A DNA stretch of 64,000 nt, taken from NCBI GenBank assembly GCA_902801245.1, contig CADCHW010000001.1, positions 9,626 to 73,625 of the forward strand. Direction: 5' to 3'. Under the pieces are notes generated by a model. It worked only from the letters and a program-made list of their open reading frames with translations. It was not told the origin of the DNA and did no database searches. How positions within the stretch are numbered: position 1 is the first letter of the stretch; every line of letters begins with the position of its first letter. The DNA is from an uncultured Ruminococcus sp. (GTDB lineage: Bacteria; Bacillota; Clostridia; Oscillospirales; Acutalibacteraceae). Made by a program: the position numbers and the translations under genes. Positions 5,198 through 60,525 of the stretch are shown here, in pieces.

Positions 5198-5216
5198 TAG
5201 AATATAAAATTTACAT

Positions 5217-5240
5217 AAGGGGGGCGAAAGCCCTCCTTTT
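5217..5240 (+). terminator. Rho-independent terminator after spoVM
   Basis: AAGGGGGGC-GAAA-GCCCTCCTT hairpin followed by a T-run. Confidence 0.75.
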
Positions 5241-5267
5241 ATTATACTAGGGTTTGAAAAGATTTAT

Positions 5268-5518
5268 CATTTTAAAGTTTGGTCAAGCTTTTCAAAGCTT
5301 GCGGGGTGCAGGGGCAGAGCCCCGCTCGCTGACGAAACCAACTTGCAAAGAAAAGTAAACTACCCTCAGCGAAACTAAACAAACTATGCTTAGAAAATAA
5401 AAATAAAAACAAAAACATATATAAAAACGTATCTATCTGTACAAACCAACAAAGGCAACAGCGTAGCGAATTGCCGGTCGAAGAAAGAAATTGGACGATT
5501 TTAAATTCAACCGTACAG
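5268..5518 (+). repeat. Family A intergenic repeat, copy A1 (lacks the left terminal inverted repeat)
   Basis: Shares the ~115-nt core and the GGCAACAGCGTAGCGAATTGCCGG block with copies at 40027, 49742, 58250(-) and 60124; right end CAACCGTACAG. Confidence 0.85.
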
Positions 5519-5925
5519 GTAGAATAATTTACATAAGGGGACAAAAGCCCTCCTTGTATTGATTAATGATTTTAACGGTAAGTATTTTCAGATAAGAGAG
5601 AAAAACATTAAAATGATTAATTGTTAGTATATAATTTCTTCGGTGGGTTCGGTGGGTTTCTGGGTTTTTTATATTAATTGTTAAGAAAAAAATAAAAATT
5701 AAAAATATATAAGACTTATTGAAAAAGGGTGCGAACCCACCGAACCTACCGAGGGTAAGCCACTCTCAATATACAATGATTTTATAAAATTGTATATTTC
5801 AATATTTTTGTAAGATATTATAAATTTAAATGCAAATATTTTAAATTGTAATGATATATTGATTAGAAGAGTGAAAGGTGAATAAAGAGTTTAACTTAGG
5901 TTAGTGTAAATAGGGCATTGTACGC

Positions 5926-18174: not shown

Positions 18175-19251
18175 TTATGCTCCGAAAAGTTCGGCAATTG
18201 CACTTTCTGAAATCTTAGAACCGATTACGCAAAGTCTGCCGATAGTTCCTGCTGTGCCTGTTCTTACATCGGGTTCGCCCGGAACATAGTCAAAGTGAAT
18301 CCATGCACCGTCTGTACCCTCAACAATACCCTTTGCACGAAGAATAATGCCGAACTTCTCCTCGTTTGCAAGCTCGTTCAAGGCTGCCGTAATATCCTCG
18401 GCTGTGAACTTCTTTGTAGTTTCAACACCCCAGCTTGTGAATACTTCGTCGGCATGGTGGTGATGATGATGTCCGTGTTCATGGTCGTGGTCGTGATGAT
18501 GTTCATGCTCATGGTCGTGATGATGTTCATGCTCATGGTCGTGGTCGTGGTCGTGGTCATGGTGATGTTCATGCTCATGGTCGTGGTCATGATGATGTCC
18601 GCAAACAGGGCAAACGTCCTCTTCTTCTTGTAGTTTTTTAAGTGCCTCTTCGAGAGTATTTTTATTTTCGATAGCAAGAACAATCTGTTCACCGCTGAGG
18701 TTATCCCAGTCGGTAGTGATAAGCTCTGCCTTTGCGTTATGCTCTCTGAGAAGCTTTACGCATGCAGCAAGTTTTTCGTCCGAAATATTTTTGGTATGGC
18801 TGAGAACAATCGCACTTGCGTGTTCAACCTGATTGTTGAAAAATTCGCCGAAATTCTTGATGTACATTTTGCACTTATTAGCGTCAACTACCGTTGTAAA
18901 GCTGTTGAGAACAATATCATCTGAATGAATATTTTCAACTGCGGCAATAACGTCACTGAGCTTGCCGACACCCGACGGCTCGATAATGATTCTGTCCGGT
19001 GAGTACTGAGCAAGAACCTTTTTGAGAGCCTCGCCGAAATCGCCGACCAAACTACAGCAAATACAGCCGGAGTTCATTTCCGTGATTTCAATGCCTGCGT
19101 CCTGCAAGAAACCGCCGTCAATGCCAATCTCGCCAAATTCGTTCTCTATAAGCACAAGCTTCTCGCCGCTGTAAGCTTCGGCAATAAGCTTCTTGATTAG
19201 CGTTGTCTTACCTGCTCCGAGAAAACCGGAGAAAATATCTACTTTTGTCAT
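18175..19251 (-). CDS. COG0523-family (CobW/ZigA/YciC-like) metallochaperone GTPase with a long His-rich insert
   Basis: GFLGAGKTTL P-loop; GCICCS CxCC motif; roughly 45-residue H/D/E run (HHHDHDHEHEHHHDHDH...HHHHHH). Confidence 0.85.
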   Translation of the reverse strand: MTKVDIFSGFLGAGKTTLIKKLIAEAYSGEKLVLIENEFGEIGIDGGFLQDAGIEITEMNSGCICCSLVGDFGEALKKVLAQYSPDRIIIEPSGVGKLSDVIAAVENIHSDDIVLNSFTTVVDANKCKMYIKNFGEFFNNQVEHASAIVLSHTKNISDEKLAACVKLLREHNAKAELITTDWDNLSGEQIVLAIENKNTLEEALKKLQEEEDVCPVCGHHHDHDHEHEHHHDHDHDHDHEHEHHHDHEHEHHHDHDHEHGHHHHHHADEVFTSWGVETTKKFTAEDITAALNELANEEKFGIILRAKGIVEGTDGAWIHFDYVPGEPDVRTGTAGTIGRLCVIGSKISESAIAELFGA

Positions 19252-31534: not shown

Positions 31535-31568
31535 CCGCAAAAGTAAAAACGCTTTTGCGGTTTTTTTT
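31535..31568 (+). terminator. Rho-independent terminator
   Basis: CCGCAAAAG...CTTTTGCGG stem followed by T8. Confidence 0.8.
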
Positions 31569-31620
31569 AACACGTGAAGATAGTTCTTCTGTAACGTAAC
31601 TTCACGAACCCGACCGATAG
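31569..31620. repeat. Family B palindromic repeat, isolated left arm (B1a)
   Basis: AACACGTGAAGATAGTTCTT...CTTCACGAACCCGACCGATAG, near-identical to 31787-31840. Confidence 0.8.
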
Positions 31621-31786
31621 AATGTTTAATGAGGTAGTTTTAGATTACTCTATTATAATTTGATTGTAAAAGTAATTTTAAATACAAAAAGTATTGCTAA
31701 CAAATAAAAATTTGTTGTCGAGCGGCGATGTGCAATATGTGAAGCAGCTTTTTTTCTTTTAGCTTTATGAATCCCACCGTTTTTTT

Positions 31787-31925
31787 AACACGTGAAGATA
31801 GTTCTTTTGTAATATAACTTCATGAGCCCGACCGATACTTTATTGTTACAGCGATTTTCGGTCGGGTGCGTGAAGTTATTTCTTAAAAAGACTATCTTCA
31901 CGTGTTTCCAGCGGACGTTGTCCGC
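31787..31925 (+). repeat. Family B palindromic repeat, full copy (B1b) with terminal hairpin
   Basis: CACGTGAAGATAG...CCCGACCGA / TCGGTCGGG...CTATCTTCACGTG long imperfect palindrome, then TTTCCA and hairpin GCGGACGTTGTCCGC. Confidence 0.85.
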
Positions 31926-31938
31926 CGTTACCCGCCGC

Positions 31939-39996: not shown

Positions 39997-40026
39997 AATA
40001 GTGAAATGTTGACTTTGAAATTTTTT

Positions 40027-40365
40027 TAGTTGTACGGTTGCGAAGCTTGTTAAAGTTTGGTCAAGCTTTTTAAAGCTTGCGGGCGACGGAACACCCCAAG
40101 AAGTCAAGCCGTTAGGCGTAGACTGATTGGTAGGTGTTCCTAGCGGTCTTGCACCATGCAGGGGCAGAGCCCTTGTCGCTGACGAATCCAACTTTCAAAG
40201 AAAAATAAACTACCCTCAGCGAAACTAAACAAACTATAATTAAAAAACAAAAATAAAAGCCTATATAAAATGTATCTTTCGATTAAAACCAAAACAGGCA
40301 ACAGCGTAGCGAATTGCCGGTCTAAGAAAGATATTGGACGATTTTAAATTCAACCGTACAGCTAC
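40027..40365 (+). repeat. Family A repeat, copy A2: complete, with terminal inverted repeats and a 9-bp flanking direct repeat
   Basis: Left end TAGTTGTACGGTTG, right end CAACCGTACAGCTAC; AAATTTTTT at 40018-40026 and 40366-40374; carries an extra ~73-nt hairpin at 40084-40156. Confidence 0.85.
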
Positions 40366-40392
40366 AAATTTTTTACTTAAAGGAAGAGGATT

Positions 40393-40659
40393 ATGAAGCT
40401 AAAGAAAGAGTATACTGTATACCACAGCGAAAATAAAAGCATTCTTATCCCTGTAGAAGATACAGAATTTTCGGGTATTGTAAAAGGAAATAAAACGTTT
40501 GGAATTATTTTAGATTGCCTGCAAAAAGGTACAACGGAGAAAAATATTGTAAAGTATTTAAAAGAAAAATACAGAAATGCCGATATTATAGCCGAGAATG
40601 ATGTAAAAAAGGTTCTTGCAGAATTAAGAAAAATAGGAGCTATAGATGAGTATGAATAA
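40393..40659 (+). CDS. PqqD-family (RiPP recognition element-like) small protein
   Basis: 88 aa; GNKTFGIILDCLQKGTTEKNIVKYLKEKY...DVKKVLAELRKIGAI matches the PqqD/RRE pattern; AGGAAGAGG RBS. Confidence 0.7.
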   Translation: MKLKKEYTVYHSENKSILIPVEDTEFSGIVKGNKTFGIILDCLQKGTTEKNIVKYLKEKYRNADIIAENDVKKVLAELRKIGAIDEYE

Positions 40660-41773
40660 AAGTAAATATTTGAAATCTGTAAATGATATGATTTATCTTA
40701 TCTATTGTGTTATTAATAATCATATACCCGATACGGATAAAATCAACAATATCAATCCCGAGAATCTTTATCTGATATCAAAGAATCATATGCTAACAGC
40801 GATAACGGCTGTCGCACTGGAATCGGCAGGGTTAAAATTTGAGAATTTTACACAAGCGAAAGGTAAAGCTTGCAGAAAAAATGCCACTCTCGATATAGAA
40901 AGAGCGGCTTTATTTAAATATTTTGACAGTGAAAATATATGGTATGTTCCACTTAAGGGTGCGGTTCTGAAAGATTATTATCCTGAGTTTGGTATGCGTG
41001 AAATGTCGGATAACGATATATTGTTCGATTCGTCATACAGAGAACAGGCTAAGAAATATTTTGAAACCAACGGCTACGAAACTAAAAAATACGGCAGCAG
41101 TAATCACGATATATATTTGAAAAAACCTGTGAGTAATTTTGAAATGCACGTTGAATTGTTTGAGGAAAGCTACGCCGAAAAATATCCCGAAATTAGGGAA
41201 TATTACAAGAACGTTCAAAAACGTTTGATAAAAAATGATACGGGCAGCGGCTGTCATTTCAGCAATGAGGATTTTTACATATACATAATTACACATGCAT
41301 ACAAGCACTATTCAATCGGCGGGACAGGCTTGCGTTCACTGCTTGACATATATGTTTTTATGAAGAAATTCGGAGATACTCTTAAAACTGAGTACATAGA
41401 AACCGAGCTTCAAAAAATGAAAATTGCCGAGTATGAACGCAGCAGCCGACGTTTGGCAATGAACCTTTTCGGAAAGAACAAGCTTGCCGATGAAGACAGG
41501 GAAATGTTTGAATACATAGTCTTTTCGGGGGCTTACGGCACTAAGGAACATATTGTAAAAAACAGAATGGATAGGTTTAACGGCAGCAAGCTAAGGTACG
41601 TTTTTTACAAAATTTTTCCGCCTGTAAGTAAATTGAAAAAGAGATATCCCGTTTTCTTTAAGCACAAAATATTACTTCCGTTTTTGCCTTTTTACAGATT
41701 GTTCAGAGCTTTCACAGTAAAAAGAGAAAGAGCAAAAACAGAAATAAAATTGTTATTAAAATATAAAAGTTAA
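40646..41773 (+). CDS. Uncharacterised nucleotidyltransferase-family protein (NTP_transf_5-like)
   Basis: 14-nt overlap with the PqqD-like gene; LKGAVLKDYYPE...REMSDNDILF...HDIYLKKP...FEMHVELF pattern as in PF14907-type proteins. Confidence 0.65.
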   Translation: MSMNKSKYLKSVNDMIYLIYCVINNHIPDTDKINNINPENLYLISKNHMLTAITAVALESAGLKFENFTQAKGKACRKNATLDIERAALFKYFDSENIWYVPLKGAVLKDYYPEFGMREMSDNDILFDSSYREQAKKYFETNGYETKKYGSSNHDIYLKKPVSNFEMHVELFEESYAEKYPEIREYYKNVQKRLIKNDTGSGCHFSNEDFYIYIITHAYKHYSIGGTGLRSLLDIYVFMKKFGDTLKTEYIETELQKMKIAEYERSSRRLAMNLFGKNKLADEDREMFEYIVFSGAYGTKEHIVKNRMDRFNGSKLRYVFYKIFPPVSKLKKRYPVFFKHKILLPFLPFYRLFRAFTVKRERAKTEIKLLLKYKS

Positions 41774-44737: not shown

Positions 44738-44917
44738 AAGAAGACAGTCTTTTTAAGAAATAGCTTCATCTACCCGACCGAAAGTATTTGGTATGATTGT
44801 TATTGTACTTCATAAAGTTGGTCAAAAATTGCCGCATTAAAATCAACTTTCGGTCGGGTAATAAAAGTTACGGATAAATCAAACTGTCTACACGTGTTTT
44901 CTGTCGGCATTGCCGAC
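44738..44917 (+). repeat. Family B palindromic repeat, full copy (B2)
   Basis: GAAGACAGTC...CCCGACCGAAAGT / ACTTTCGGTCGGG...ACTGTCTACACGTG, then hairpin GTCGGCATTGCCGAC. Confidence 0.8.
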
Positions 44918-44922
44918 CCGAC

Positions 44923-45858
44923 TTAATTTTCGGGGACAATTTTAACAACCGCCGTGCTGCTGTAAACAAGCGGATTGCTGTGAGAAAAGAAAATCGTACC
45001 GGTACACGGAGCAATAATTTTCTCCGTAATCTCACCCGTGTAAGGGTCAATTATTCTTGCAAGCAAATCGCCTGCCTCGGCTTGCTGACCCGATTGCAGA
45101 ACAGGTCGGTAAATACCCGAATGGGTGTTGCGGACATTTACCATATCCGTATTCCAAAGCAGCTTTGAGTGATAGCCTGCATTTGTGCTGACACTCTCGT
45201 CAATAACTCCGATACACTTCAAAAAGTGCAGAACACTCTTTATACCTTGCTTTGCACTTGCTTCATCGATATCGGCAGTAGTTGTTGTGTAAACGCTGTA
45301 AGCTTTTGTTTCCCAAAGCTGCCAGTTGTAGTTCAAAGTGGTAGTGTCATAAGGACGAACCTTTCTCCGCACAACATAGGGCATACCGAAAAGCTTCGCC
45401 TGTTCCACGTCCTCTTCGCCTGTTGACATCATTCTGATATGCGGAATAAATCTTCCCGGCATATAAAAGCTGGTGAACTGAATACCGTACTTGTAACTCT
45501 TGATATTCTCAAACAAACCTGCCGCAATTCTCTGAGTAGTTTCGCCCACATCATAGCCGGGGAACATTCTGTTAATGTCGGTGTTGTCGATAGGCCAGAA
45601 CCGCTTCTCAGTGTTTATGCTTCTCGGGTTGGCACAGGGGATAACGGTTATTTTCTTATCCTTGACAATAGCACCCTTTTGTTCCAGAATATTCAACTCT
45701 TTAACAAGCTGACTGCAAACGTAAGTCTGCTGTATCTCGTTTCCTCTCAGGCTTCCCAGAATGCAGACGGATTCTTCACCCGAACCGAACTCGAAAGCTC
45801 GTGCCCTCATATCATCTCTGTAAAGTGTTTTTAACTCGTAAATAATTTTTTCTCTCAT
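44923..45858 (-). CDS. AstE/AspA (succinylglutamate desuccinylase/aspartoacylase) family paralog with substituted metal ligands
   Basis: Same-length paralog of the upstream gene; GSLRGNEIQ in place of GTHGDELEG and IQFTS in place of IDIHAS. Confidence 0.7.
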   Translation of the reverse strand: MREKIIYELKTLYRDDMRARAFEFGSGEESVCILGSLRGNEIQQTYVCSQLVKELNILEQKGAIVKDKKITVIPCANPRSINTEKRFWPIDNTDINRMFPGYDVGETTQRIAAGLFENIKSYKYGIQFTSFYMPGRFIPHIRMMSTGEEDVEQAKLFGMPYVVRRKVRPYDTTTLNYNWQLWETKAYSVYTTTTADIDEASAKQGIKSVLHFLKCIGVIDESVSTNAGYHSKLLWNTDMVNVRNTHSGIYRPVLQSGQQAEAGDLLARIIDPYTGEITEKIIAPCTGTIFFSHSNPLVYSSTAVVKIVPEN

Positions 45859-46811
45859 ATTTTCAATTCTCTTCCCGGTAAAATTCTTCCGATTAACGAA
45901 CCCTCGTCAACAATGGGATATTCTCTGATTGTGAAGAGAATACCGTCACAGTCGGCAGTCACAGTCGTTAAGACCTTTCCCGACAGCGGGTCGATAATAT
46001 CGCCGATATGCTGACCCTCGGTGACGTTCGTCCAGTGCTTTGTGTGAGCAACGAACAAACCCGACTTCTCGGCATTCAAAAATGAAATGGGGTCTTCATC
46101 ATAAACCACAAGCGGCTTGCGGACGTTCGGAACTTCACCGCTCCACATTCCCAGCGATGACATAAGATTGAAAATTCCGTCCGTAAGCTGTTCGCAGTAG
46201 GATTTTGTTATCCTCATTCCAACACCCATTTCAACAACCAGAGTAGGCACTCCCACAGCGTTCATAGAGTGTGCCAGAGTAGATTCGAGTACAGTCGCCG
46301 ACGGGTGAACCCATATCAAATCAATATTTATTTTCTCGGCAATCGGAACAAGCTTTTTACCGAAAATAGTGTTGATTCTGACCTGAGGTATTTCCGTAAG
46401 AAAAATATTGCTTGCATGAATATCTATGCAAACGTCCGAACCCTCCAAATCCGTGACAATACCGTTTGCGATATGCTCAAGCATATAACCCTCGCTGTCA
46501 CCGGGGAACATTCTGTTCATATCCAAATCGAATGCGGGAATACCTCTTGTAATGGAATCAATGCCTATGGGATTGATAGCCGGATAGATGTCTATAATTC
46601 CGTTTAGGCATTCGGGGTGTTCATTAATTCTTTTCTGAACAAGATAGCATACATACTGACCCTCAAGCTCGTCACCGTGAGTTCCTGTTACAATGCTTAT
46701 TCTTTTTAAGTTATCGGTGTTCTCGGGGGCAATACGATTTTTCTTGATTCTTAAACTTTCATCACAGGGCAAATCAGCCTGCGTTACTGTTTGTATCATG
46801 TACTTCCTCAA
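45855..46811 (-). CDS. AstE/AspA-family zinc deacylase (M14-like)
   Basis: GTHGDELEG (HxxE) and DIHAS metal-site motifs; ATGA overlap with the downstream paralog. Confidence 0.8.
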   Translation of the reverse strand: MRKYMIQTVTQADLPCDESLRIKKNRIAPENTDNLKRISIVTGTHGDELEGQYVCYLVQKRINEHPECLNGIIDIYPAINPIGIDSITRGIPAFDLDMNRMFPGDSEGYMLEHIANGIVTDLEGSDVCIDIHASNIFLTEIPQVRINTIFGKKLVPIAEKINIDLIWVHPSATVLESTLAHSMNAVGVPTLVVEMGVGMRITKSYCEQLTDGIFNLMSSLGMWSGEVPNVRKPLVVYDEDPISFLNAEKSGLFVAHTKHWTNVTEGQHIGDIIDPLSGKVLTTVTADCDGILFTIREYPIVDEGSLIGRILPGRELKI

Positions 46812-47580
46812 CTTTCACATATATTTTCTGCGACTGAGTACCGCTGCCACGGAATATTCCTCTGTTGACGCTGCAATCGGCACTGTCACGTCCTGTGGAA
46901 ATAACGATGTGATTTTCGCTGACCTCCACATCATTAGTAGGGTCTAAGCCGTACCATTTGCCGTCCGAGTAAATCTCCGTCCAAGCGTGAGTTTCACCCT
47001 CACCCATAAGCAGACCCGTCACATATCGGCAGGGAATACCCAGACTTCGGCAAATCGAAAGCATTGACTGTGAGTAATCCTGACACACTCCTTTACCGAG
47101 TGCAAAGGATTCCTCCGCACTTGTAGCAATGCTTGTCGCTTTGGGAACGTATTCAAAGTGCTTGTAAACCTCGTGCATAATATAGCGTGATTTTTCAAGG
47201 TTGTCACCCTCGGGCAGACTGAGCTTCTTTCGGAACTCAGTCAATGATTCTCCCGATTTTGTGAGAGGTGTCTGCACTTTGAACAGTCCAAGCATAGACG
47301 GATTCACGTCCTCATCGTAAAATCCGCCGTTCATCTCGCACACACCCTCCACGGTTACACTGAACAGGGTGTGTTCTTCTGAAATACTGCCGTATCGGGT
47401 AAGGTTTCCGAAACCGTCCGTGCCGTCGGACAGCTTAACATTCGGGGTAATCTCGAAGTTAAGTTCGCTCACTGTCTGACGGCTTCCCGACTTCGGCAGG
47501 CATTTCAGCTTAAAATTGTGATTAGAAATAGGGCTTGTAAACTCGATTGTCATATTGTAGTGAAACTTTAGTTTCTTCAA
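46774..47580 (-). CDS. Transglutaminase-like cysteine protease-fold protein
   Basis: GKGVCQDYS...THAWTE...DPTND Cys-His-Asp triad; N-terminal Bact_transglu_N-like region. Confidence 0.85.
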   Translation of the reverse strand: MKKLKFHYNMTIEFTSPISNHNFKLKCLPKSGSRQTVSELNFEITPNVKLSDGTDGFGNLTRYGSISEEHTLFSVTVEGVCEMNGGFYDEDVNPSMLGLFKVQTPLTKSGESLTEFRKKLSLPEGDNLEKSRYIMHEVYKHFEYVPKATSIATSAEESFALGKGVCQDYSQSMLSICRSLGIPCRYVTGLLMGEGETHAWTEIYSDGKWYGLDPTNDVEVSENHIVISTGRDSADCSVNRGIFRGSGTQSQKIYVKVEEVHDTNSNAG

Positions 47581-47581
47581 A

Positions 47582-48250
47582 TTATATCTCCACCAAACTT
47601 TCTATATTTTCTACAATATTATAATAGTCTACTTTTTCACTTTCTGCAAGCATTTTTATTTCTTCCAGCTTAAATTTATTGTAAGGAAGTCCGCTGACGG
47701 GCAAACGGTAGTATAATTTTGAGATTTCCTTACTAAGCTGTGCTCTCGGAACTTTGAGTCTTGCGTACAAATCAATACGTTCAAGACGTTTTCCTACCTT
47801 GATTGCATCTCGTGTACGCTTGCTGTCGATTGAATCGTCCATATATCCCCAGAAAGCGAGAATGTGGTCGATAAGCTTCTGAATCTCCAGCATAGGAGAA
47901 TGACTTTTTTCCGCTTTCTGAATGTCATACATGGAAAGCTGAATGTAGCTCAGACCGTCCGAGCCTATTTCGTCACGCAGAATAATGGCATTGTCATAAG
48001 CTCTTGTCATATTGCTGATAATACTGTCGGGGTTGTCATTGTCAAACGCATAGCTTTTGATGAAGTTGTCCTTTGAACCGTAGATATCGGGAATATTCAT
48101 ATCAATGCAGAATTTCTGATAACTTTCCGCAATCTCGTCAATCATTGTGTCATAATGATTTGCATAAAGCTTTACAGTGGTGTACACTCTCTCGGTGTAT
48201 CTTCCAAGCCAGAAAAGGCTGTCGTTTTGTTCTATCGTGATAATACCCAT
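47582..48250 (-). CDS. Alpha-E domain protein
   Basis: N-terminal LFWLGRYTER motif characteristic of alpha-E domains; adjacent to the circularly permuted ATP-grasp gene. Confidence 0.8.
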   Translation of the reverse strand: MGIITIEQNDSLFWLGRYTERVYTTVKLYANHYDTMIDEIAESYQKFCIDMNIPDIYGSKDNFIKSYAFDNDNPDSIISNMTRAYDNAIILRDEIGSDGLSYIQLSMYDIQKAEKSHSPMLEIQKLIDHILAFWGYMDDSIDSKRTRDAIKVGKRLERIDLYARLKVPRAQLSKEISKLYYRLPVSGLPYNKFKLEEIKMLAESEKVDYYNIVENIESLVEI

Positions 48251-49572
48251 GTGTCTTTAAATCCTCCGCCCTGTGATGAATTAACTATGAATGAATCGGG
48301 GTTTCTTGAATATCTTGTCAAGCCCGAACGCCAAACAAGCGGTTCGTCCGCCATAAGAACAAATGCTCTCAAATCGGCTTTTCTCGGAACGATATTGCCG
48401 TCATCGAGAATTTCCAAATCCTTGAAATCGATAACTTCCTGACCGATAAATCTTCTCGGTTCGCTCTTAAGGAGATTAATGAAATCTTCCTTTTCGGTAC
48501 TCGAAAGCTTGCTTCCGAAAACAACACCGTAACCGCCTGCTTCCGCAACATCTTTCAGTACGAGATTGTCGAAATTGTCGAGAACATATTTCATATCCTC
48601 TTCGTAGAAAGGAAGATATGTTGGAGCATTGTTAAGTATAGGCTCTTCACCAAGATAATACTTAATCATTTTCGGTACAAAATAATAGATACCCTTGTCG
48701 TCTGCCACACCGTTTCCGGGAGCATTGATAATAGCAACGTTGCCCTTTTTGAACACATCGAAAATATGAGGAATACCGATAAGCGATTCGGAATTGAAAT
48801 TTATCGGGTCGAGATACTCGTCACTGATACGTCTGTAAACAGCACCCACACGCTCTTTCTTGCCGCTTGCGTCGAGATAGTAAAGCTTGTCGTCCTCAAC
48901 TGTCAACGCATTGTTTGTGACAAGGTGAGCACCTGTTCTTTCTGCAAGATAGGAATGCTCAAAGTAAGCGGCATTGTATCTGCCGGGTGTGAGGATAACC
49001 GTGTGACCGCCGACATTGACGTTATCCATTGTACGTCTGAGTAGGTCGGCATAGTTTCTGTTGTCCTCGATAGCAGTGTTTGCGAAAACATCGGGAGCGG
49101 AGCGGCGGCACAAATCTCTTGCTATCATAGGGTAGGAAGCACCCGAGGGAACTCTGAGATTATCCTCCAGTATGTACCAGCCTCCGTCCTTGGACTGAAC
49201 AAGGTCAATTCCCGAAATGTGGCTGTAAATGTCGTTTACAGGGAAAGCTCCCTCCATTTGCGGCATATAGCCGCTGCTTGCAAAGATGAAATCTTCCGGT
49301 ACAATACCGTCCTTAACGATACTTTTCTTGCTGTAGATATCCTTTAAAAATAAGTTCAAAGCGACAACTCTCTGCTTTAAACCTTTTTCCAGTACCGCAA
49401 ATTCGTCTGCTTTGATAATTCTGGGAATTGAGTCAAACGGAAAAAGCTGTTCTTTAAAGGTGTTATTCTTGTATATTCCAAACTTAACTCCGTATCTTGC
49501 GAGAAGCTCATTGACGGAGTCGGTATATTCAAGAAGCTTATACATGTCTTCCATAAAATCACAACCTAACAA
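48232..49572 (-). CDS. Circularly permuted type-2 ATP-grasp protein
   Basis: 446 aa, composition and order as in CP_ATPgrasp_2 proteins; first gene of the operon; likely true start is the ATG at 49554 (MEDMYKLL). Confidence 0.8.
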   Translation of the reverse strand: MLGCDFMEDMYKLLEYTDSVNELLARYGVKFGIYKNNTFKEQLFPFDSIPRIIKADEFAVLEKGLKQRVVALNLFLKDIYSKKSIVKDGIVPEDFIFASSGYMPQMEGAFPVNDIYSHISGIDLVQSKDGGWYILEDNLRVPSGASYPMIARDLCRRSAPDVFANTAIEDNRNYADLLRRTMDNVNVGGHTVILTPGRYNAAYFEHSYLAERTGAHLVTNNALTVEDDKLYYLDASGKKERVGAVYRRISDEYLDPINFNSESLIGIPHIFDVFKKGNVAIINAPGNGVADDKGIYYFVPKMIKYYLGEEPILNNAPTYLPFYEEDMKYVLDNFDNLVLKDVAEAGGYGVVFGSKLSSTEKEDFINLLKSEPRRFIGQEVIDFKDLEILDDGNIVPRKADLRAFVLMADEPLVWRSGLTRYSRNPDSFIVNSSQGGGFKDTWVLSR

Positions 49573-49670: not shown

Positions 49671-49741
49671 TAAAAATTCCGACGAAAATAATGTTAATTT
49701 TGACAAACTTCTTGATAATTTTTGCTATATCTTTCGGCGGA

Positions 49742-49988
49742 GCGAAGCTTGTTAAAGTTTGGTCAAGCTTTTCAAAGCTTGCGGGGTGCAGGGGCAGAGC
49801 CCCGCTCGCTGACGGAAAAAATTTGCAAAGAAAAGCAAACTACCCTCAGCGAAACTGAACAAACTATCAACAGCAAAATAAAAAAACAATCATAAAAACA
49901 ATATGTTCCGACATAAATAAAAGCAGGCAAGAGCGTATCGAATTGCCGATTTTAGAAAGATAACTTACGATTTGATTTCGACTGTACA
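49742..49988 (+). repeat. Family A repeat, copy A3
   Basis: GCGAAGCTTGTTAAAGTTTGGTCAAGC... core plus the CAGGCAAGAGCGTATCGAATTGCCG block; ends ...TCGACTGTACA. Confidence 0.85.
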
Positions 49989-49992
49989 TTTT

Positions 49993-53378: not shown

Positions 53379-53528
53379 CCGGCAGGAAATACGTGAAGAC
53401 AGTCCTCTTTATATTTACTTTATGCACCCGACCGAAAATCAATTTTAACAACGAGGTATCGGTCGGGTACGTGAAGTGAAAATTTTAAACAAAAGCTGCT
53501 TTACATGTTTCCTGCGGACGTTGTCCGC
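53379..53528 (+). repeat. Family B palindromic repeat, full copy (B3)
   Basis: CCGGCAGGAAATACGTGAAGACAGTC...CACCCGACCGAAAA / TATCGGTCGGGTACGTGAAG...CATGTTTCCTGCGG, then hairpin GCGGACGTTGTCCGC. Confidence 0.8.
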
Positions 53529-53703
53529 CGAATAATTTCTAATTTTTTTCCTGTATACAGGGGTTGAAATATAAATAAAATGTGATAAAATAGTATTAGC
53601 CGATTTTTGATAGGCATTTTATTTTTTAGTCTATAACCTATTAAACATATATTTTTTATATAAATTGGATATATATGATGTTGTGCGAAAGGAGTGTTGC
53701 AGA

Positions 53704-55474: not shown

Positions 55475-55545
55475 GACGGACAACGCCCGCTGGAAACATG
55501 TGAAGATAATCCTTTTAAATTTTATTTTTATGAACCCGACCAAAG
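55475..55545 (-). repeat. Family B repeat, partial copy (B4), inverted orientation
   Basis: Reverse complement reads ...GGTCGGGTTCAT...GGATTATCTTCACATGTTTCCAGCGGGCGTTGTCCGTC. Confidence 0.7.
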
Positions 55546-56041
55546 CCGATGATATTTTTCCCGACAGCGGCTCGGACGGCAGAGCAGCATTATTTTCCTT
55601 ATCATGGTGTGTGACTGTAGGGCACACACCACCACTTGTTATATTGTTTAGTTGTATCGGGTTTATTGTCGATAGTTTTATCGGTCTTGTTAAAGGTTCT
55701 TTTTACTGTTCTGTTGTAGGTTTTGTTAGCGATTTTTCAGACAACTTTGATTAGATATAGAAATATTTTAATATACTATTATATATTTAACAATTAAAAA
55801 ATTTTGTTAATATAACAAAATTCCGATTATCACAATTACGCATTAATCATCAGCCAACGTCCAAAAGAAAAGCCGACTTTCACATATCAAAAACCAAACA
55901 ATTACGCATTACAAATTATGAATTATATAAATATTGTGTGGTTTGTAACAGATTATTCATATTTATGCGATATAATAGAAAACGTATTTTATCCGAAGAG
56001 ATATCGGAAAGATAACATTTATAAAGGAGTTCGTTTGATAT

Positions 56042-58191: not shown

Positions 58192-58237
58192 AACACTAAG
58201 CGGATTTTTTTAATCTCTGCTTAGTGTTTTGCTTTTT
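58192..58237 (+). terminator. Rho-independent terminator after panD
   Basis: AACACTAAGC...GCTTAGTGTT stem followed by TTGCTTTTT. Confidence 0.7.
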
Positions 58238-58249
58238 ATTCCAAAGAGT

Positions 58250-58734
58250 TAAGATTTAGTTCTTTTCTTTCTTAGACCGGCAATTCGCTTTGCTCTTGCC
58301 TGTTTTGGTTGATATCGGAAGATGTTTTTTGATGTGTGTTTTTTATTTTGTTGTTTTGTTGAATAGAGTTCGTTTAGTTTCGCTGAGGGTAGTTTATTTT
58401 CTACGCTGATTTGCTGCGTCAGCGAGCATGGGCTCTGCCCCTGCATGGTGCAAGACCACTATAGCAAACCAAACAAATATCCGAACAAGTTCGGTGTCCC
58501 ACTGAGCACATGGCTGCGTTGTCGTCCTTGACATACGACAGTATGCCTGCGTCCTCCGCCTTGCCCTGCACTCAGCGGAATCACCTTCTTTTGTCCGTCT
58601 TTCTTTTGTCCGTCTATCTATTTGGATTGCTATAGGACACACCTACCAATCAGTCTACGCCTAACGGCTTGACTGATTGGGGTGTTCCGTCGCCCGCAAG
58701 CCTTTGTAAAGGCTTGAGAGAAACTTTAAAATGG
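58250..58734 (-). repeat. Family A repeat, copy A4 (longest; two nested GC-rich expansions), 7 nt downstream of the rlmD stop on the same strand
   Basis: Reverse complement carries the A core, the ~55-nt hairpin also seen in A2, and a further ~165-nt segment bounded by CTATAG (58459-58464 and 58630-58635). Confidence 0.85.
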
Positions 58735-58741
58735 TATAACT

Positions 58742-60123: not shown

Positions 60124-60363
60124 TAGTTGTTAGACTGCGAAGCCTGTTAAAGTTTGGTCAAGCTTTTTAAAGCTTGCGGGGTGCAGGGGCAGAGCCCCGC
60201 TCGCTGACGAAACCAACTGTCAAAGAAAAATAAACTATCCTCAGCGAAATTAAAAAACTATTAACAGCAAGCAATAAAAACAAATCCTATCCGCATAAAT
60301 AAAATCAGGCAACAGCGAAGCGAATTGCCGGTCGTGAGAAAGATAACCCACAATTACGCATTA
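60124..60363 (+). repeat. Family A repeat, copy A5 (divergent right end)
   Basis: TAGTTGTTAGACTGCGAAGCCTGTTAAAGTTTGGTCAAGC... core plus the CAGGCAACAGCGAAGCGAATTGCCGG block; ends in CACAATTACGCATTA. Confidence 0.85.
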
Positions 60364-60525
60364 TATATATGATATCATTTTTTAATGCTCAATTCAACAA
60401 AAATTTTTTTGTTAAACCACAGCTTTATATGTTAATATTTCTGTTGCTATTTTGAAGAAATTGATATATAATGTTATGTAGACAATTAATAAAAAGTTTA
60501 GTAGAAAAGTGAGAGGTGCTTTTAA

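Follow-up and report, generated by a model that had tools for sequence, protein, structure and literature searches.

The DNA examined here is a 64,000-nucleotide stretch (hereafter the window) of contig CADCHW010000001.1 from an uncultured Ruminococcus sp., a chromosomal region of 39.5% G+C that is identical to the metagenome-assembly contig ERZ27280685:k141_268521 in ENA. Its genes are housekeeping genes, some of them with dockerins, and the nearest named relatives are uncultured Ruminococcus and Acutalibacteraceae. Among these genes lie the copies of a non-coding interspersed repeat, Family A, which is the subject of this study. An nhmmer profile built from three copies recovered exactly five in the window (E 4e-35 to 4e-85) and nothing weaker, in agreement with a preliminary description of this DNA; the match spans were 5250-5517 (+), 40032-40083 plus 40148-40360 (+), 49730-49989 (+), 58263-58474 (-) and 60126-60365 (+), the fourth of which was prolonged to approximately 58738 by eye. 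Repeat-finding on the window returned the same families. All five copies are intergenic, as had been described, with unrelated housekeeping genes on either side: a short-form copy at 5243-5522 (+) in the TPK/dnaE spacer, a long-form copy with type-2 ends at 40027-40365 (+) in the abhydrolase/PqqD spacer, a short-form copy with degenerate type-2 ends at 49730-49988 (+) in the ATP-grasp/LysR spacer, a copy with type-1 ends, an optional module at hairpin 2 (hp2) and a nested element at 58237-58738 (-) in the panD/rlmD spacer, and a short-form copy with a type-2 left end from 60124 to approximately 60355 (+) in the rlmD/murC spacer. Copy sizes range from 230 to 500 nt, with a basic unit of approximately 240-280 nt. 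A gene end lies within 4-40 nt of the copies, and the genes on the two sides often run in the same direction; the orientation of the copies relative to neighbouring genes is mixed, the 49730-49988 copy being antisense to both adjacent genes.

The copy at 40027-40365, to which the preliminary description had drawn attention, is the only one of the five with intact ends on both sides and a flanking repeat. Its left terminal inverted repeat (TIR), the type-2 end TAGTTGTACGGTTG at 40027-40040 (+), pairs with CAACCGTACAGCTA at 40351-40364, giving a 14-nt TIR with 13 of 14 Watson-Crick pairs and one T.G and confirming the inverted-repeat ends proposed for this copy; the right TIR, read directly, is CAACCGTACAGCTAC (40351-40365, +). 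The motif AAATTTTTT abuts both ends exactly, as the left (40018-40026, +, read directly) and right (40366-40374, +) halves of a target-site duplication. Counting both strands, the 64-kb window contains this 9-mer only 13 times, so the presence of two copies exactly abutting these ends is not due to chance. When folded as RNA, the copy reaches -103.7 kcal/mol (z = -6.6) with its ends paired.

Beyond the window, 17 further Family A copies were found in 15 loci from other assemblies (L-numbers denote such loci, carrying or lacking the repeat). Two unrelated types of ends carry the Family A cargo. Type-2 ends read TAGYTGTACGGTTG, with TAGYTGTACGGTTGCGAAGCTTG as the left end, and are accompanied by A/T-run duplications; they occur in L016, L029 and L042 as in the copy at 40027-40365. 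Type-1 ends, with TATA as their invariable boundary, read TATACTCRAA..AAGATTTAGCA; they surround Family A cargo in L003, L015, L017, L018 and L020, where the TIR is approximately 30 nt long, and in the window copy at 58237-58738 (c58734), and they also enclose unrelated cargos (L017:597, L016:555 and L020:10136). Among the complete type-2 copies, the flanking repeats match at 9/9 positions in the copy at 40027-40365 (c40027), at 8/8 in L016 (AAATTTTT on both sides), and at 6-7 of 8 in L029 (AATAATTT / AAAAATTT) and L042 (AAAAAAAT / AAAAATAT). The duplication is 8 or 9 bp long, as at one end a single unmatched base separates the repeat from the TIR; the left flanks of incomplete Family A copies are likewise A/T runs.

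Comparison with related genomes identified an empty site for one of the copies. The divergent murC-rlmD spacer lacks the 60124 copy in four related lineages (L019, L020, L030 and L031; RlmD 87-88% identical), with flanks approximately 89% identical to the window, and is filled in L033, a same-species strain of 97% identity. In the orientation of the element, the empty site reads TTCATAAAAAATTTATCTCAATTATATAATACC and holds a single AAATTTTTT as the reverse complement; from the frequency in the window, the chance of finding this motif within 10 nt of a given point is approximately 0.4%. The 60124 copy is therefore an insertion, one that has since lost its right arm and right duplicate; its right boundary is uncertain by approximately 10 nt. 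These results bear out the flanking duplication put forward, at 9 bp, in the preliminary description, which had also named coincidental A/T runs as the explanation to be excluded: since the same or a close motif flanks the independent copies in L016, L029 and L042 and remains single at the empty site, AAATTTTTT represents a preferred, duplicated target rather than a coincidental A/T run. The simplest reading is that an A/T-run target is preferred and is duplicated over 8-9 bp on insertion, in either orientation.

Alignments were made of the five window copies and of 22 Family A copies in all, and they bear out the three-part layout described earlier (core, A-rich spacer and CAGGCAA..GCGAATTGCC block). 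The cargo of approximately 215 nt begins with hairpins hp1-hp3, which a short helix closes, and continues with an A-rich spacer and hp4; the following coordinates refer to the forward strand of the copy at 40027-40365. The conserved core of approximately 185 nt (40054-40235) is bounded by the helix AGTTTG/CAAACT (40054-59 with 40230-35), which encloses hp1, hp2 and hp3. Hairpin hp1, CAAGCTTTTTAAAGCTTG at 40062-40079 (written CAAGCTTTTnAAAGCTTG in the full copy alignment), shows compensatory variants between copies, with the stem alternatives AAGCT/AGCTT, AAGCC/GGCTT (c58734, L004 and L020) and AAACTT/AAGTTT, and with AAACTTTT/AAAAGTTT in L018. In hp2 (CAGGGG-CAGAG-CCCTTG, 40159-40175), the CAGAG loop is conserved while the G/C stem covaries, as in CAAGGG/CCCTTG (L013), CCAAAGG/CCTTTGG (L020) and GCAGGGG/CCCCTGC (L014). 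Hairpin hp3 (TCGCTGA ... TCAGCGA, 40176-40222) has an A-rich loop of approximately 33 nt with an invariant AGAAAA and is the same in all copies. The A-rich spacer (40238-40296) varies in sequence and length and is followed by the second conserved block, hp4 (GGCAA-CAGCGTAGCGAA-TTGCC, 40297-40318; GGCAA-CAGCGnAGCGAA-TTGCC in the 22-copy alignment), and then by AGAAAGA. The motif CAGCG(A/T)A occurs three to four times per element.

An optional hairpin module of 73 nt (40084-40156) is inserted at hp2 in this copy and is missing from short-form copies; it is found at the same point of hp2 in c58734, L017, L018 and the partial L003 copy, and one of its stems alternates between a Watson-Crick and a tandem G.A pair. 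Its presence requires two corrections to the earlier account. The length of approximately 340 nt holds for the copy at 40027-40365 but not for the family unit, since it includes the module, and the near-identical core of approximately 115 nt is indeed shared among copies but is interrupted in this one by the module.

The RNAalifold consensus and the pair counts were computed on 14 short-form copies. Standard pairs make up 97.7% of the cells in this structure, the consensus core alone refolds to the same structure, and the core is predicted to be able to fold as a four-way junction. Covariation is confined to hp1 and hp2, where 3 of 37 pairs are changed on both sides (5 cells); hp3, hp4 and the closing helix are invariant and therefore offer no covariation to test. 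In a control of 500 shuffles, none reached the cell count and 9 reached the pair count, although related sequences can pass this control without any structure.

The copies also differ through chimerism, nesting and decay. The copy at 5243-5522 is chimeric, joining a type-1 left end (TATACT..AAGATTTATCA) to a type-2 right end (CAACCGTACAGGTAG). On its two sides, at 5208-5244 and 5527-5563, lie the units of an imperfect direct repeat of approximately 35 nt, containing a terminator-like hairpin (AATTTACATAAGGGGGGCGAAAGCCCTCCTT / AATTTACATAAGGGGACAAAAGCCCTCCTT); this bracket is too long for an ordinary target duplication and is present in all same-species contigs. Further downstream in the long TPK-dnaE spacer, upstream of dnaE (approximately 5641-5758), lies an inverted repeat, CGGTGGGTTCGGTGGGTT ... 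GAACCCACCGAACCTACCG, with approximately 70 nt of A/T-rich DNA between its arms. Two chimeras were observed in other loci: L020 10136-10385 consists of a type-1 left end, hp1 and hp2, then unrelated hairpin-rich sequence and a type-1 right end, and L007 (approximately 1431-1508, -) of a type-2 left end, hp1 and hp2, then unrelated hairpin-rich sequence.

The copy at 58237-58738 starts 4 nt past the rlmD stop codon, and its left TIR is shortened by approximately 20 nt. Its optional module contains a nested TIR element of 171 nt (58462-58632, -; ends TAGCAAnCCAAAnA), flanked by TA at 58633-58634 and 58460-58461. Uninterrupted modules read CCTAGYGG, whereas this copy reads CC-TA-[element]-TA-GTGG, a clean TA duplication, which indicates past activity of at least two kinds of small TIR element in the lineage. 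The interior motif of the nested element, GCAGGnATACTGnCGTATnTCAAGG, was found again beside the L002 copy. Decay in the window takes the form of end truncation (60124 and 58237), degenerate ends (49730) and nested insertion (58237). A short-form copy in L020 (7386-7659) occupies the same position after rlmD and shares the subfamily-specific hp1 of the 58237-58738 copy; at this locus, shared by two species, the conserved blocks are 83-97% identical, compared with 70% for the spacer and 65% for the third codon positions of rlmD. Selection on the cargo might account for the high block identity, as might homogenisation of the copies or recent insertions that occurred independently.

Family A is narrow in its distribution, as indicated by the few matches to an exact-pattern scan. 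Only one of 185,579 species-representative genomes was positive, the rumen metagenome-assembled genome (MAG) RUG10904, with seven exact-pattern loci and nine copies or fragments by profile. The same scan found Family A on six JGI metagenome contigs; a seventh metagenome match (L012) is a chance pattern in unrelated GC-rich DNA. A few rumen Ruminococcus-like genomes and contigs are thus the only places where the family was found, and a very high genome-wide copy number, which the density in the window might suggest, is not supported by RUG10904, the single related genome scanned. In L014 (Ga0138317_1078418), one copy lies between G+C-rich flanks, unlike the 39% G+C window, which suggests that another host or element, richer in G+C, carries Family A too. 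Same-species assemblies break inside the Family A element, as expected of a dispersed repeat.

No coding function is evident in the copies. The earlier statement that open reading frames (ORFs) crossing them are not frame-conserved agrees with our results: the ORFs are short, and a reverse-strand frame is open through the core in three copies, but it has no conserved start and is broken in the 60124 copy. When the 90-aa reverse-strand ORF across the copy at 5243-5522 was used as a query, only two spurious relatives appeared among 5.8 billion proteins; this route was rejected as a census of the family, and the two matches led to two further Family A copies, L029 and L042. No transposase, integrase or recombinase domain was detected in any main ORF of the window, which accords with the earlier report that no transposase is present there. 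In L016, a C-terminal remnant of an IS1380-type transposase (856-1260, -; PF13701, E 1.6e-22) with stop codons upstream adjoins a separate element of approximately 245 nt (555 to approximately 800) with type-1-like ends. This transposase was considered and rejected as a partner of Family A: the remnant lies approximately 300 nt from the type-1-like end and could not be linked to it, since that end pairs with a nearby right end that bounds the separate 245-nt element.

Database searches likewise returned no described relative. Rfam applied to the whole window at gathering thresholds found tRNA only, and three Family A copies scanned at E<=10 gave best matches of 9-19 bits against cut-offs of 37-95, so the element matches no named RNA family at either gathering or permissive thresholds, in line with the preliminary description, which had not recognised it as one. 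Plasmid, phage and viral-contig searches gave no Family A match, ARAGORN found no tRNA-like gene in the family, a scan found no promoter-like or terminator-like site inside the copy at 40027-40365, and a literature search yielded no description of the element. Several candidate identities were also discarded: a tRNA-like cloverleaf (wrong dimensions and ARAGORN silent), a hammerhead core (CUGACGA/GAAAC is present but, by eye, its helices are misplaced), an ssoA CS-6 site (TAGCGT) in the hp4 loop (not conserved across copies) and a type I toxin on the T-rich strand (neither start nor frame is conserved). The sequence of Family A matches nothing described among the collections and literature searched, and it represents a previously undescribed family of a MITE-like kind (MITE, miniature inverted-repeat transposable element).

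Collectively, Family A is probably (roughly 70%) a lineage-restricted, non-autonomous, MITE-like DNA transposon of rumen Ruminococcus-like Clostridia. The MITE-like interpretation, already offered in the preliminary description, gains support from multiplicity, from a small size that falls within the approximately 50-800 bp of MITEs, from non-coding nature, from TIRs and target duplication, and from the filled and empty states of one site in different species; the dispersed copies further combine a target motif with conserved hairpins and a modular build. The reading draws above all on the TIRs, the duplicated preferred target, lineage-specific presence and absence, the mixed orientation of the copies and their progressive decay. 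The transposase would be encoded at another place in the genome and would bind the TIRs, and the element would be inserted in either orientation into intergenic A-run or T-run DNA, preferably AAATTTTTT, with repair of the staggered target cut producing the direct duplication of 8-9 bp. Mobilisation would take place in trans, by an enzyme whose involvement we infer. The family is a mosaic in which the same cargo of approximately 215 nt stands between two unrelated kinds of ends, with the optional 73-nt module at hp2, and old copies decay through end truncation and through nested insertion of other small elements. The conserved hairpins presumably serve the element rather than the host, for example as protein-binding or single-strand structures during transposition.

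Several observations weigh against this interpretation. The core is better conserved than the ends, and the ends are interchangeable, which is the reverse of the usual MITE pattern; Family A would be an ordinary element of its kind except that its most conserved part is the hairpin-rich interior. The excess of block conservation over the third codon positions of rlmD hints at selection or homogenisation beyond simple decay, and L029 and L042 show imperfect flank duplications. Neither the window nor the fetched loci yielded an autonomous partner whose ends match. An empty site was not found for the copy at 40027-40365, where all ten same-species contigs, which come from several samples, are filled or end inside the repeat; relatives of the neighbouring NTP_transf_5 gene drop from 99% to 62% identity with none between. 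The copy at 5243-5522, fixed in all same-species contigs, likewise yielded no empty site, nor was one found for any type-1 copy, and the TA or TATA duplication of type-1 ends is thus putative; beyond the end of rlmD, where the type-1 copy of the window lies, the relatives do not share homologous DNA.

Because the core is more conserved than the ends and is carried by two kinds of them, an appreciable but small probability attaches to the idea that the cargo is a functional structured RNA of the A-rich (+) strand, with the four-way-junction core and hp4 closed by the terminal helix of each copy. Such an RNA might be the product of a multi-copy non-coding RNA (ncRNA) gene or act in cis on the stability or processing of mRNAs; it would spread with the MITE ends that carry it and be kept by selection. 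Near-invariant core blocks beside a variable spacer and variable ends would fit this idea, as would blocks conserved beyond synonymous sites at the shared rlmD locus, the fold z-score of the copy at 40027-40365, and hp1 and hp2 pairing kept through two-sided changes; however, the invariance of hp3, hp4 and the closing helix means that covariation is missing from most of the fold, and the shuffle control can be passed by related sequences whether structured or not. The optional module is a conserved hairpin placed at a hairpin, like the expansion segments of large RNAs, and the terminal helices differ between copies yet stay complementary (L002 has the double change TACCA/TGGTA), but the chimeras in L007 and L020:10136 keep hp1 and hp2 while replacing the rest, which breaks the proposed junction. 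The absence of an Rfam match and of internal promoter-like or terminator-like sites, together with the mixed orientation to neighbouring genes, also argues against an RNA gene. An excess of G.U-type over A.C-type cells on the + strand (18:2) points in the direction of RNA but rests on two to three positions and is not significant; it was rejected as evidence, since one position is register-dependent, one shows all four bases and some rows are misaligned. It is similarly improbable that the unit of selection is a structured RNA or single-strand DNA cargo captured by at least two unrelated MITE chassis and conserved above synonymous sites. If it were, Family A would constitute a mobile ncRNA gene family in rumen Ruminococcus, whose RNA might, for example, act as guide, decoy or scaffold for the protein product of a gene located elsewhere. 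Multiplication of a bacterial ncRNA through transfer of its gene from one transposon chassis to another would be unusual.

A host-recruited repeat of the REP/BIME, BOX or ERIC type, spread mainly by recombination or gene conversion and acting as an mRNA stabiliser, insulator or protein-binding site, appears less likely again. The modular mosaic with optional internal modules resembles BOX (A-Bn-C) and the ERIC inserts, and the location close to gene ends between co-directional genes, the fixation of copies within species and the repeated CAGCG(A/T)A motif would all suit a host function; however, clean presence and absence at a conserved spacer, combined with a target motif and a flank duplication, is a signature of transposition, and the copies possess TIRs of 14-30 nt. 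It is very unlikely that the copies are decayed remnants of insertion sequences (IS), prophages or integrative elements, or miniature elements moved by a site-specific recombinase with AAATTTTTT as the crossover core. An att core would also account for one flanking motif recurring at independent sites, and several copies are truncated, but no recombinase lies nearby, phage, plasmid and viral-contig searches found no match, and the motif at the empty site lacks arms resembling the element ends. Insertion in both orientations relative to an asymmetric motif, and the imperfect duplications of differing sequence in L029 and L042, further oppose a recombinase.

If Family A is a MITE-like transposon, its defined target motif (AAATTTTTT) and its copies, which grade from intact through truncated to nested, make it a tidy system for studying the birth and decay of MITEs in an uncultured lineage. 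The family causes assemblies of rumen Ruminococcus MAGs to break, and it could serve as a strain or species marker. Its insertion also places structured RNA near genes, for example 28 nt ahead of the PqqD-like gene and 4 nt past the end of rlmD, which may alter the expression of neighbours.

Other features of the window were recorded in passing. A second interspersed repeat, Family B, is characterised by the motifs CCCGACCGA and CTTCACGTGTT together with the hairpin CTGCGGACGTTGTCCGCCG, arranged in direct as well as inverted orientation, and it occurs at 31562-31619, 31780-31837, 31857-31927, 44740-44919, 53417-53530 and 55477-55574. Family B is also found beside Family A copies in L006 and L007, and in L006 a Family B-like piece lies inside hp4 of the Family A copy. 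The CobW-family gene at 18175-19251 (-), encoding a GTPase of the CobW/HypB/UreG type, contains a 12/18-nt periodic repeat (18448-18609) that specifies a His/Asp/Glu-rich tract, as expected of a metal-chaperone linker. Directly downstream of the copy at 40027-40365 lies a gene pair for a PqqD-like protein and NTP_transf_5 (40393-41773), and a conserved cluster of circularly permuted ATP-grasp, Alpha-E, transglutaminase and AstE/AspA genes occupies 44923-49572.

Family A can be compared with several known kinds of small bacterial elements. Two of them were ruled out by the structure of the copies. IS200/IS605-derived PATEs and orphan omega-RNAs have subterminal hairpins but no TIRs, insert 3' of a tetra- or pentanucleotide and make no target duplication; Family A has TIRs and a flank duplication, and no TnpA or TnpB is encoded in the window. 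REP/BIME sequences are palindromes of 20-40 nt that occur in clusters, are associated with a RAYT Y1 transposase and make no duplication, whereas the Family A unit is 240-500 nt long with TIRs and a duplication, and the window contains no RAYT-like gene. MITEs derived from IS630/Tc1-mariner elements (RUP, Nezha) combine TIRs with a TA duplication, as does the nested 171-nt element. The type-1 ends of Family A, bounded by TA/TATA, resemble them, but the type-2 ends do not fit, and no IS630-type transposase was seen. The MITE-like bcr1 of the Bacillus cereus group, a Firmicutes element of approximately 155 bp, duplicates the A/T-rich TTTAT and is predicted to fold as RNA; its sequence, size and target all differ from those of Family A. 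The ERIC/IRU sequences of enterobacteria are imperfect palindromes of approximately 127 bp with inserts of approximately 70 bp at fixed positions, to which the 73-nt module of Family A is alike, although the taxa and sequences are unrelated and Family A is larger, with multiple hairpins. The pneumococcal BOX (boxA-boxB(n)-boxC), RUP and SPRITE elements are, like Family A, modular mosaics with optional modules whose ends pair into a long stem-loop, and they are intergenic repeats of Firmicutes with an unknown mobilising enzyme, as is Family A. However, Family A shares no sequence similarity with BOX and has a target duplication and a defined target motif; BOX is not known to have a clear target duplication. 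Bacterial MITEs such as the Correia elements (CREE/NEMIS) of Neisseria share with Family A a length of 100-500 bp, a non-coding nature, TIRs, a short target duplication, many intergenic copies that carry no transposase of their own, and strong structure when transcribed, often inside operons. In comparison with Correia elements, Family A is unrelated in sequence, resides in a rumen Clostridium-class host, shows at its type-2 ends a duplication of 8-9 bp in an A/T run rather than TA, and combines an interior more conserved than its ends with two unrelated kinds of ends.

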